A stretch of 62,699 bases of DNA from Shigella phage POCJ13: sequence record KJ603229. One strand, written 5' to 3'. Positions 15,001 through 18,000 of the stretch are shown in pieces. A program made the position numbers. How positions within the stretch are numbered: position 1 is the stretch's first letter; every line of letters begins with the position of its first letter.

Positions 15001-18000
15001 AGGACTGTACTGTGTTGACGACAACACATATCAAGCAGACAGTCATGCTGTTAGATCACGGTTTGCTTGATGGAAGGTTGACAACTCATAAGAAATTAAA
15101 TTTATTAATAAGACTCATTAAATTTTATGTTAGATTTGCAAGATGACAGGAAACAAAATATTAGGAGCAATAAAAAAAACAGGAGCAGCATTAATGTTTA
15201 TTATTCTGCTGATCTTTGTAAAGATAATTGCAACTGAGTTCGGTGATAATAAAATTGATGATATTTTATCAAACAAAGAAGATGCAGATAAAATTGCCTC
15301 ATACTTAAAAAATGAACTATCCAAGAAAAAATTCCCTATTAAAGTAGATGATTATACTACATGGATTGCTGCAACCGTAGAAGGAAATACACTTAATCAT
15401 TACTATAATATTTATGGGATTAATGAAGATATGTCGCCATTTTTTGATGGTGAAGAGATTAAAAACTTAATGAGCCTAGAAATACAAAAAAAATTAAATT
15501 CTGTCGAGTGTAAAATGATGCAGGAGTATAATTATACATTCAAATATCATTATAACATAATAAACACGAAATATAATGACTTAGTTATAATTATGACAAA
15601 GAGTAATTGTCCACAATGAAGGGGATGCATATGGATAACTCAAAACTGAAGAAAATGCTTATTGCATCTATTATCGGAAACATACTTTTAGTTTTTTTAA
15701 ATATTCAAGTGTTCAACCAAAAACACTCCTCAAACGTCATAGACACACAAAAAAAAGAGGATAAAAGTAAGTGGACTGATATAGAAAACATTTATCCTGT
15801 GTGTAAGGTTCACAATAATAACACATCTTATAGCGGGCAATTAAAGCCAGAATGGTACTGTTATTGGTTTAATCCAATAACATACAAATACACATATTTA
15901 GAAAAGACTCTGATAACATCACCCAGTGATGGTGTTTTCTATTTTTCGAACGAGTATACACCAACTATTGAATTACGTCATAAAGCAAGTGACATAAGTG
16001 TTCCTGTTGATATATATGCCAAACAATTATTAGACCGACTGGAACGTGAATCAAATGCTAAAATTTTTCTACCTAAGGAGGCCAAACAGATAAAAAGTAA
16101 AAAGTTGGAAAAATGGACTTCATTTATTACAGTTATTCCCAAAGACAATTCAAAGGATATAGAGACTTTTCTTTTATCTTTCATTAAAAAGGAAGAGGTT
16201 TTATGGACGGTTTTCGTTGAATACCCAAATGATGATAAAAAGTACTGGTACATTGATGAGAAGACATTTGATCTAATAGATAAGATAACCAGTACTTTTT
16301 GATGCGACTATCTGGCGGGGATTAAATACTATATGCACCGTATTTATTATCCCCTTTTTCTGACGGGATACAGTACATAACGAACAATATAAAGCCACCA
16401 ATATACGGGATGCACCAGATAAACAAGTACCAGGCACTTAACCCAATATCATGGAGTCTGCGGACTTTCAATGTAATGGATGGAATAATCGTAGCTAATA
16501 CGTAAACGCAAGGTATATAAAACCCATAACTAATGCCAGTATTATCTAATGTATATCCGATAAAAAAAAGAACTCCCAAGAATATTAAATTAAACAGATA
16601 ATACCACCAGAACTCTCTTCGACTGGCTCGCCCTGAATAATTGAAGTAGTTATTAAAAAGAACATCCGTATACCATGCCAAAGGGGATTTTCTCATGCTT
16701 TTATACTCCAAACATTAATATTAAATTGATGATTATTAACAACTTAAAACAACGTTAATGTTTTACCTAATAGGGTGTCAACATCTACACAAGGAAATGT
16801 TGACACACCACACATTCTGTCGGATACTCTGCGTCAGGTGCTCAAAACACCTTAGCAAGTAGCGGTTACCGCGCCCGACAGACATGCGGTTTTTTTTGTG
16901 TCCAGTCTTCTTGGTTTATGACCGGGCGTGCGGCTAATACAATACCAGCAATGGGAATATGCCCGCCGACTACTTGCGGTTTTGAGCGCCCGGTCACCCT
17001 CTCAAAAGGGGTAAATCAAAATATCAAGTAGGACACAAAGCATGAAAACCATCTCCGTGGAGTCCCTCTCCATAATTTCATTTAGTAATATACCTGTGGT
17101 GACTACAGAGCTTCTTGCCAGCTTATATGGCACAGAACCAGATTACATCCGAAAAAATTTCAATCGGAATTCTGGACGATTTGTTATCGGTAAGCACTAC
17201 TTTTTACTTGAGAATGAGGAGTTGCGCGAATTTAAGCACAGCATGTCTTTAAGACCTTCTGTGAAAATCGCCCGTAACGTTCGCTCCCTCATCCTCTGGA
17301 CAGAACGCGGAGCAGCCCGTCACGCAAAAATGCTCGAAACTGATCAGGCATGGGAAGTGTTCGAAAAACTGGAAGACTGCTATTTCAGCCAGGGAAAAAC
17401 AACACAAACCGAACAGCAGTCGCATATTCAGCCACAATTCACAGCCGAGGAAATCATCCTCCTTTGCTACATGCAGCTCTGGATGGAAAAAGCCCAGGGC
17501 ATCAGCAAACACCTGTACCCCATTATGAAAGAGCTGAACTCCTCATACACGAACAAGCTGTATGACATTGCGTTTGAGACTATCTACATGGTGACGAAGA
17601 ACAGAGACGCGCTACTGAGGGAGGTAACACGTCTCGACATGTCAAGTTCCGTTGTCCAGAGGGCCATGCCAATGCTGAAAAGCCTGCGGGCAAGACAATT
17701 TGAATTCTGAAACCAAAGGAGCTTCGGCTCCTTTTTTGTTGGGAAAATCCAGTGAGAGGGAATAATGAACCAGACTATCTTCCTCCGAAGTAAGCAGCAG
17801 CAACAATTCGCCATTAACGCAATCCTTGCAACAACTCTCGATAAAGACAAACCCGTTACGATCCGCATCACCGATTACAAGCGTAATCTCGCTCAAAATG
17901 CAAAATTTCACGCGATGGTCGCTGATATCTCCCGACAGGTTCAGTGGTGTGGCAGGTGGCTAAAACCAGAACAGTGGAAAGTTTTGTTGATCAGCGGTCA

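Follow-up and report, generated by a model that had tools for sequence, protein, structure and literature searches.

The region at positions 16775–17710 of Shigella phage POCJ13 (sequence record KJ603229; the 62.7-kb stretch analyzed is hereafter called the window) probably forms a self-sufficient RNA module that controls an antirepressor gene, following the logic of the immI (c4) region of phages P1 and P7 and of the isrK locus of Gifsy-1. This reading is carried by the anatomy of the region, its match to the sRNA-Xcc1 RNA family (the RNA is called Xcc1 below), structural covariation within that RNA, covariation of short sequence boxes at three places of the module, and the association with antirepressor genes. 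The RNA family itself is already catalogued; what we add is its placement in a proposed antirepressor module of the c4/IsrK type. An original prediction from the sequence had described an inverted repeat, a hairpin with a U-run, and a long-range stem upstream of an antirepressor gene and had compared the arrangement with antisense or attenuation control. Our analysis confirms what was observed there and supports how it was interpreted. The region is organized as follows (bp, base pairs; nt, nucleotides; aa, amino acids).

16775–16784 / 16797–16806: perfect 10-bp inverted repeat GTGTCAACAT-N12-ATGTTGACAC, a candidate operator that overlaps the −35 hexamer
16800–16828 (+): sigma-70-type promoter-like site TTGACA-N17-GATACT, the sole such site in 16300–17300
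16835–16897 (+): leader RNA of ∼63 nt, proposed counterpart of IsrK and c4-a1b1
16837–16851 (+): small hairpin GGUG-CUCAAAA-CACC with the a1 box CUCAAAA (16841–16847) in its loop
16855–16862 (+): b1 box GCAAGUAG, 8/8 complementary to 16970–16977
16862–16865 (+): GCGG after b1
16869–16889 (+): hairpin CCGCG (16869–16873) / UGCGG (16885–16889) with the 11-nt loop CCCGACAGACA
16890–16897 (+): U8 run directly 3′ of this hairpin
16920–17003 (+): three-way-junction RNA of the sRNA-Xcc1 family (Rfam RF02221, our model R1, covariation)
16920–16928 with 16987–16995 (+): closing stem P1
Stem P2: carries the invariant loop AAUACAAUACC/GGGAAUA
16965–16980 (+): stem P3
16970–16977 (+): b2 box CUACUUGC in the P3 loop
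16980–16987 (+): a2 box UUUUGAGC in the 3′ junction
16996–17012 (+): small hairpin right after Xcc1 with a second a box, CUCAAAA (17001–17007), in its loop, the position of a′ in phage P1
17016–17041 (+): target region at the translation start (AUG at 17042)
17016–17021 (+): a-like box UCAAAA
17025–17031 (+): b′ box CAAGUAG overlapping the Shine-Dalgarno sequence AGGA (17030–17033)
17042–17710 (+): antirepressor-type gene (222 aa; ORF6N and P22_AR_C domains), proposed as the regulated gene

The structured core is an sRNA-Xcc1 RNA

When the complete window is scanned with Rfam at gathering thresholds, 16920–17003 on the plus strand emerges as a full-length match to sRNA-Xcc1 (RF02221) with 79.6 bits, compared with a gathering score of 53. 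We collected relatives from IMG/VR by means of the invariant core AATACAAYACC-N4-9-GGRAAWA and parsed 82 modules after near-duplicates had been dropped. The covariance model R1, built from 82 homologues and a hand-given three-way-junction structure, scores the 16920–17003 copy at 89.2 bits and recognizes 99 copies in the fetched viral loci.

The long-range stem seen in the original prediction to enclose a conserved core is formed by 16919–16928 and 16987–16996, which are 100% complementary over 10 bp. The expected covariation across homologous loci is found as well. The R1 alignment of 98 distinct homologues is fitted to the model and thereby biased toward the structure, but the margin is large nonetheless: 87.7% of its cells are paired, compared with 30–52% when the partners are slid, and 394 cells show double changes, compared with 33–99 for slid partners. 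Compensatory changes occur in 17 of the 21 pairs. MAFFT alignment followed by RNAalifold gave only a partial consensus for Xcc1 and none for the leaders because helix registers were misaligned. For Xcc1, this was remedied by the hand-given structure and model-based realignment; the leader is reported here as stem classes and a sequence profile only.

The ends of the RNA in the window are U16919/G16920 and C-ACC (16995–16998). U(−1)G(+1) stands in fixed alignment columns in 53 of the 98 sequences, many others being off by one column, and an R-C-C tail follows stem P1 in 74 of them. These sequence features agree with a 5′ end made by RNase P and with tRNA-like ends, as in C4 RNA. Even in distant hosts, the internal loop of P2 (AAUACAAYACC/GGRAAUA) hardly varies.

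An outer helix, GGUUUAU/GUAAAUC (16913–16919 with 17012–17018), can enclose Xcc1 together with the next small hairpin. Some lineages (loci L021 and L040) possess a similar extra helix, which may be a precursor structure.

We also considered, and rejected, peptide coding by the open reading frame (ORF) at 16918–17031 (+, 37 aa), the counterpart of an “antB2” antirepressor annotation in phage P13374 (locus L002, 3062–3208). The ATG before stem P1 is conserved, and the frame of the ORF relative to the invariant core varies among copies, so that the ORF carries no coding signal. Coding-sequence calls of the antB2 type are probably spurious, and the conserved ATG more likely reflects the AU/G processing site.

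A predicted short leader with a hairpin and a U-run

The hairpin and U8 run that the original prediction placed in front of the core are present at 16869–16897. Our terminator scan missed the hairpin at 16869–16889 because its loop exceeds 8 nt. Hairpin and U-run recur in 70 of the 82 related modules, in which the stem sequences differ and complementarity is kept. By analogy, transcription would terminate at the U8 run (16897). Because hairpin and U-run lie upstream of the structured RNA, they would end a short leader transcript as in IsrK and would not represent the expression platform of a riboswitch.

The NCGG sequence after b1 co-varies with the base that follows the conserved CCG of the leader hairpin loop (∼60 modules; 16862–16865 and 16875–16878 in the window). 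CCGU accompanies ACGG in 12 of 13 cases and GCGG in 18 of 44 (Fisher p = 0.0012, uncorrected for relatedness); inside the CGC-stem class, the covariation gives p = 0.0046, likewise uncorrected. This pattern hints at an alternative helix in competition with the terminator.

Pairing of the terminator loop with the promoter spacer was tried as a further candidate and discarded. The loop (16875–16882) is 8/8 complementary to 16816–16823, and the second module of the window is similar; across loci, the comparison of own with other partners gives z = −0.4. We treat the match as chance or as specific to a sub-lineage.

Boxes of Xcc1 match the leader and the ribosome-binding site

Xcc1 is complementary to two other parts of its own locus. 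Positions 16970–16985 and 17016–17031 are 81% complementary over 16 nt, reaching the Shine-Dalgarno sequence of the antirepressor gene. The a2 box UUUUGAGC is complementary to the leader hairpin loop (GCUCAAAA) and also to CUCAAAA (17001–17007) and UCAAAA (17016–17021).

This complementarity is specific to the locus throughout the 82 modules. The longest complementary run within the own locus was compared with that in permuted loci (20000 permutations), using parsed boxes of the P3 loop and the junction; these boxes replaced an RNAduplex comparison of entire regions of Xcc1, leaders, and ribosome-binding sites (RBS), which promiscuous pairing of GC-rich stems made too noisy. The P3 loop (b2) matches the leader with z = 12.6 and the RBS region with z = 16.1, and the 3′ junction (a2) matches them with z = 9.0 and z = 7.0, respectively. 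The longest string common to leader and RBS region gives z = 12.3. In all five tests, 0 of 20000 permutations reach the observed value. This matching within the own locus is direct evidence of selection for pairing of Xcc1 with its own leader and RBS, and it does not address the sign of regulation.

The boxes themselves are variable, with 75 distinct P3 (b2) loops among 82 modules. The window alone contains two further Rfam matches to sRNA-Xcc1, at 61769–61854 (−, 74.5 bits) and 62305–62389 (−, 53.0 bits), both of which lie in modules of the same layout.

61978–62503 (−): second module, with promoter 62503–62474, leader hairpin and U-run ending at 62420, and Xcc1 62389–62305
62265–61978 (−): gene of the second module, a truncated AntA
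61105–62000 (−): third module, with promoter 62000–61971, leader U-run 61910–61905, and Xcc1 61854–61769
61728–61105 (−): gene of the third module, AntA/P22_AR_C

The b2 boxes of the first, second, and third modules are CUACUUG, UCUGACG, and UCUUUUGG, and their a2 boxes are UUUUGAG, GUAGUUGA, and UUUCGAG, respectively. In each module, the leader and RBS boxes change in step with b2 and a2. Because the boxes differ among modules, each module would be specific to its own gene.

The module recurs upstream of antirepressor genes

The three copies share one order: TTGACA/G-N17-18-nATACT, a leader of ∼60–70 nt, hairpin and U-run, spacer, and Xcc1, followed on the 3′ side by a small hairpin, a Shine-Dalgarno sequence, and an antirepressor-type gene. 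The promoter-like sites of the second and third modules lie at the equivalent relative position. Nearly all true core matches in IMG/VR have a hairpin and U-run upstream and a start codon shortly downstream, and the whole arrangement is found in ∼80 non-redundant loci from phages and bacteria. An ORF was called in 75 modules, and most of these have their start codon 37–54 nt past stem P1.

As the original prediction had it, the gene starting at 17042 is of antirepressor type, encoding the ORF6N and P22_AR_C domains listed above; RefSeq labels its homologue as an ORF6N-domain protein or as phage antirepressor Ant. Among 72 downstream proteins scanned, matches to N-terminal domains of antirepressor type total 66 (Bro-N 19, KilA-N 15, P22_AR_N 12, Rha 8, AntA 7, and ORF6N 5), and P22_AR_C is present in 23.

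A species survey with one genome per species yielded copies, each confirmed by the covariance model, in Xanthomonas, Stenotrophomonas, Rhodanobacter, Dyella, Neisseria, Eikenella, Haemophilus, Aggregatibacter, Rodentibacter, Brenneria, Citrobacter, Arsenophonus, Desulfovibrionaceae, and Magnetococcales. The same leader precedes the copies that we read in Xanthomonas, Neisseria, Haemophilus, and others. POCJ13 itself is ∼99.8% identical to Shigella phage 75/02 Stx over the tested stretch (Stx, Shiga toxin). The module variant of POCJ13 occurs in 152 of 5426 complete Escherichia coli genomes, including O157:H7 strains, and also in the Stx2 phage P13374 of an O104:H4 strain. The RefSeq records of the E. 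coli genomes with the variant have no RNA feature annotated under the match.

The neighborhood of the second and third modules shows several further features. The first AntA gene (61978–62265) is cut to 95 aa, and its homology to the next AntA gene stops at GCGATGGTTGA, the exact start of the −35 hexamer TTGACG of the third module (62000). Because the homology breaks at this hexamer, the modules resemble cassettes that have been inserted into ant genes or have recombined inside them. In the record of phage Nil2, the same arrangement is given as “ant disrupted by a putative bacterial retrotransposon.” Other phages, too, often have two copies at one locus.

Genes of the AntA type also contain a palindrome at codons ∼55–60 (61536–61557 and 62073–62098 in the window; also loci L023, L058, and L008): TTTTCGCCAAA/TTTGGCGAAAA; TTTGCTTTCC-N6-GGAAAGCAAA; TTGCTTCCC-N6-GGGAAGCAA; and TATTTCCC-N6-GGGAAATA. 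Its sequence and the encoded amino acids vary among genes and self-complementarity is kept, so that it looks like a selected hairpin or binding site. Furthermore, the palindrome CAAAGCTTTG occurs twice, 20 bp apart (62589–62628, −), ∼90 bp upstream of the second-module promoter. This pair, which the terminator scan lists as a long hairpin, is a candidate double operator.

Promoter and candidate operator

The inverted repeat that had been reported to overlap a TTGACA hexamer is present and starts at 16775, one base from the position first given; the TTGACA of the promoter-like site sits within its right arm. Transcription would start near 16835. The related phage Nil2 carries the annotation “promoter by homology” at the corresponding position.

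In the window, 9 perfect inverted repeats have arms of 10 bp or more and a spacer of up to 20, compared with 1.3 expected from block shuffles. The palindrome at 16775–16806 is therefore not unique, yet a chance origin at this spot is unlikely. Homology between POCJ13 and other Stx phages begins at 16824, inside the promoter, and the full palindrome is found in 1 of 124 fetched loci, that of phage 75/02. Thus, the palindrome is part of the lineage-specific block on the left and not of the conserved module. Its half-sites are not enriched in the window (7 matches, 4.9 expected), nor was a second full copy found there. By position, it is a plausible operator, comparable with the C1 operator at the c4 promoters of phage P1.

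The block to the left (14338–16711) appears to be specific to the phage 75/02 lineage. It encodes a Gp49/HigB-like protein and a HigA-like helix-turn-helix protein of the XRE family (together 14338–15046, −, the latter at 14338–14646; assigned by eye from sequence), two unknown ORFs, and a DUF805 membrane protein (16322–16711, −). A tight palindrome, GTGTTG-N4-CAACAC, lies upstream of the HigB-like gene and is similar to the half-sites of the palindrome at 16775.

Elsewhere in the window, 22206–22419 (+) is a full-length match to the Rfam family STnc100 (195 bits, gathering score 47). It lies ∼2.6 kb downstream of a putative Q antiterminator ORF, which ends at 19603.

Proposed mechanism

The following course of events is modeled on phages P1, P4, and Gifsy-1, from which termination, processing, repression, and the direction of the leader effect are borrowed. 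Transcription would start near 16835 from the sigma-70 promoter, which in this lineage overlaps the candidate operator. The weak hairpin and U8 run (16869–16897) probably stop the majority of transcripts, giving a leader of ∼63 nt that carries a1 (CUCAAAA) and b1 (GCAAGUAG). Transcripts that read through would continue into the three-way junction of Xcc1. From these, Xcc1 is probably excised as a stable RNA of ∼80–88 nt, probably by RNase P between U16919 and G16920, because its edges (U/G … C-A-C-C) resemble those of C4 RNA, which is cut by this enzyme. The free RNA would then use b2 and a2 to pair with b′ and a′, which would keep ribosomes off the ant mRNA. Because the leader carries the boxes of the target, it would compete for the antisense RNA. 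The leader could act as a decoy or activator that titrates Xcc1, like IsrK, or as a site at which binding of Xcc1 favors termination, a feedback like that of P4 CI RNA. Neither the NCGG covariation nor the cis fold of the 5′ untranslated region (UTR) settles the direction of regulation.

Several observations weigh against this proposal. The leader alone folds no better than shuffled sequences (z = +0.6), and its stem is weak. In the minimum-energy fold of the full 5′ UTR, the leader pairs with Xcc1 in cis and the RBS is open (z = −1.85); this fold leaves the sign of cis regulation unclear. An antisense mechanism does not require the invariant P2 loop, which is left unexplained, as is the conserved loop of the leader hairpin. 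The Xanthomonas copies (loci L131, L141, L153, and L181) have clear leader boxes but, by reading, no obvious b′ at the downstream RBS; these copies may have a different target or may have lost it. Furthermore, the known families do not recognize the region: a permissive scan of 16500–17300 brings up no further relevant family and gives no match to Rfam C4, c4-a1b1, or isrK at E ≤ 10, in 18 related loci the only gathering-level matches are to sRNA-Xcc1 and none to these three families, and R1 does not match the C4 RNA of phage P1. Because the models fail to cross-match, common descent of the antisense RNAs is unproven, and convergence or a module swap is possible.

A broader reading, for which we see even chances, extends the proposal to the whole sRNA-Xcc1 family. 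The family would form a second structural class of c4-type immunity RNAs, in which a programmable two-box antisense RNA, always accompanied by an unannotated IsrK-like decoy leader, guards antirepressor genes (Bro-N, KilA-N, Rha, AntA, ORF6N, and P22_AR) in phages of Gamma-, Beta-, and Deltaproteobacteria, with diversifying boxes and a P2 loop on which a protein or ligand docks. Rapidly diversifying boxes would confer on every module a specificity of its own, so that one phage could carry several orthogonal switches. Such a docking site would add an input that is absent from P1 c4.

The timing of a prophage's switch to lytic growth is set by antirepressors. A module that works as proposed would add an RNA layer over the induction of Shiga-toxin prophages for which the RefSeq records hold no RNA feature, and it would give a catalogued RNA family of unclear function a testable role. 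Short, exchangeable recognition boxes could also serve as orthogonal RNA switches.

Alternative explanations

Xcc1 might instead be a purely cis-acting element of the 5′ UTR, riboswitch-like or protein-binding, that senses a ligand or protein through its invariant loop, thereby setting ant translation, and involves no free antisense RNA. We regard this as unlikely. In its favor, the position of Xcc1 is always in the 5′ UTR, with constant spacing to the start codon, and a near-invariant internal loop is what one expects of a binding pocket, whereas base-pairing logic does not account for it. However, the P3 loop and the 3′ junction co-vary with leader and RBS, which a ligand sensor alone would not predict, and the hairpin and U-run precede the domain by 22 nt instead of following it. 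Moreover, the RNA of Xanthomonas campestris accumulates as a discrete 88-nt species (PMC2996969). The classical order of a riboswitch or attenuator, in which a sensor is followed by a terminator or an RBS-sequestering helix, does not occur in the window, and minimum-energy folds do not show sequestration of the RBS by the Xcc1 domain itself. The cis-acting and antisense ideas could coexist, for instance in an antisense RNA with a protein partner. Somewhat less likely again is a trans-acting small RNA for host virulence or physiology genes whose linkage to ant is incidental. In Xanthomonas and Xylella, sRNA-Xcc1 has been treated as such, namely as a trans-acting RNA under HrpG/HrpX with many predicted targets (PMC2996969; PMC12189769), but the published targets are computational predictions only. 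The tight linkage to antirepressor genes and the locus-specific complementarity to the adjacent RBS and leader point to a local target, and 75 distinct loops in 82 modules are hard to square with a conserved host target.

The region could also be ordinary phage punctuation, a nin-region terminator read through by N/Q antitermination, with an RNA that merely stabilizes or insulates the ant mRNA. Terminators are known in the nin region of phage lambda, the first module lies between a moron block and ninB, its homologues lie within the early genes of other Stx phages, and the fold energies are unremarkable. Nevertheless, all three copies have a promoter-like site of their own, the module recurs in unrelated phages and genomic positions, and three-way box covariation is unexpected for a plain terminator or stabilizer. 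We consequently give this explanation little credence. The original prediction had named two models for antirepressor control, the C4 RNA of phage P1 and the sar RNA of phage P22. The layout of P1 C4 is matched element for element; a short RNA of the sar type, transcribed from the opposite strand across the ant leader and blocking translation, is highly improbable here, even though sar is a known form of antirepressor control (reviewed in PMC12197685). A consensus scan of 16300–17300, which is a weak test for the absence of promoters, gives no promoter-like site on the minus strand. In all copies, conserved structure and U-run are on the plus strand, and the minus-strand Rfam matches amount to one chance-level SNORD63 (17 bits, E = 4).

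Comparison with known systems

The antirepressor module of POCJ13 has the same order of elements as the immI region of P1/P7 (C4, RF01695; c4-a1b1, RF03163; clan CL00128). In P1 immI, the annotated order is operator Oc4, promoters P2c4 and P1c4, a1 (UUUGACA in a hairpin loop), b1 (GUUAGUGC), GCGG-ACAA-CCGC-AGAUUUCCGAUAU-UGCGG-UAUUUUUGUGUCC, AAUUAU/GGUGGGG, and C4 ending in CCUGCC-ACC, with a′ 3 nt after C4 and b′ on the icd Shine-Dalgarno sequence, followed by ant1/ant2. The corresponding motif in the window is GCGG-UUA-CCGC-G-CCCGACAGACA-UGCGG-U8-GUGUCC, and the edges of the RNA (5′ UUUAU/GACCGGG and 3′ GGUC-ACC) are like those of P1 C4. As in Xcc1, b2 of C4 is found in the last hairpin loop and a2 in the 3′ junction; as in the window, a′ directly follows the RNA and b′ lies on the Shine-Dalgarno sequence. 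Both systems have a promoter with a nearby operator (a candidate one in the window) and precede an antirepressor gene, which in P1 belongs to the regulated icd-ant operon. The c4 RNA of P1/P7 pairs around the RBS and blocks antirepressor synthesis, which is the basis of P1/P7 heteroimmunity (2025 review, PMC12197685). Box sequences are variable and set specificity in P1/P7; the boxes of the Xcc1 modules vary as well and would set specificity in the same way.

In contrast to P1 C4, Xcc1 belongs to a different Rfam family, its closing stem is shorter, and its P2 has a large invariant internal loop, whereas C4 has a plain hairpin. The leader in the window contains one hairpin, compared with two in P1. 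Because the window has no icd-like upstream ORF, the target would be the RBS of the ant gene itself, unlike in P1. Of the Rfam comparisons raised by the original prediction, the region does match a family above its gathering score, sRNA-Xcc1, but not C4 or IsrK. Model scans thus rule out membership in the C4, IsrK, or c4-a1b1 families, and the functional analogy is retained; because the C4 and IsrK models do not match, the RNA in the window is a structural variant and not a family member. In control scans of P1, the Rfam models score 68.8 bits (C4) and 51 bits (c4-a1b1). With isrK, the alignment covers the P1 leader together with its hairpin and U-run and reaches 35.1 bits, below the gathering score of 50; IsrK is therefore the counterpart of the terminated leader in c4-type modules. 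When 49 leaders of the Xcc1 type are made into a profile, its best match within 36 kb of P1 falls exactly on this leader hairpin (4275–4314, E = 0.019), which gives modest support to a shared ancestry of the leaders.

The isrK locus of Gifsy-1 (RF01394) resembles the window in its short leader with a hairpin and U-run, its antirepressor-like gene, and its complementarity to a downstream structured region. Transcription from the isrK promoter stops in part at the IsrK terminator; read-through gives a translationally silent isrK-orf45-anrP mRNA, on which short IsrK in trans activates anrP translation 139-fold (PMC4825925). Processing of the read-through transcript also yields the stable RNA STnc1160 (PMC4825925). 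The Gifsy-1 terminator is a leaky intrinsic one, and the leader exerts its effect in trans on the long transcript of the same locus. The isrK model does not match the leader in the window, which also has no coupling ORF of the orf45 type. The Gifsy-1 authors likened their locus to the CI RNA of satellite phage P4 and its seqA/seqC targets (PMC4825925). As proposed for the window, P4 CI RNA is processed from an untranslated leader and pairs with repeats up- and downstream, but the outcome is premature transcription termination of replication genes and not antirepressor control (PMC4825925). The sar RNA of P22 shares with the proposed module the post-transcriptional control of an antirepressor by pairing at the ant start region and differs from the window in being an opposite-strand transcript.

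The sRNA-Xcc1 of Xanthomonas (RF02221) belongs to the same covariance-model family, and the fetched genome copies carry the module of promoter, leader, and terminator. In X. campestris 8004, it is a discrete 88-nt RNA, as shown by Northern blot and mapped ends (PMC2996969), and it has been described as an integron-borne, trans-acting RNA tied to virulence regulators (PMC2996969; Chen et al. 2011, cited second-hand). A paper on APSE phages noted an sRNA-Xcc1 copy upstream of an ORF6N protein and left it uninterpreted, and in Xylella, matches to C4, isrK, and sRNA-Xcc1 adjoin, with Xcc1 copies in tandem. In the searchable literature, whose coverage excludes subscription journals, we found no published link of sRNA-Xcc1 to C4/IsrK or to antirepressors. 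If the proposed module is real, P1 c4, P4 CI, Gifsy-1 IsrK, and sRNA-Xcc1 would be joined in one design.

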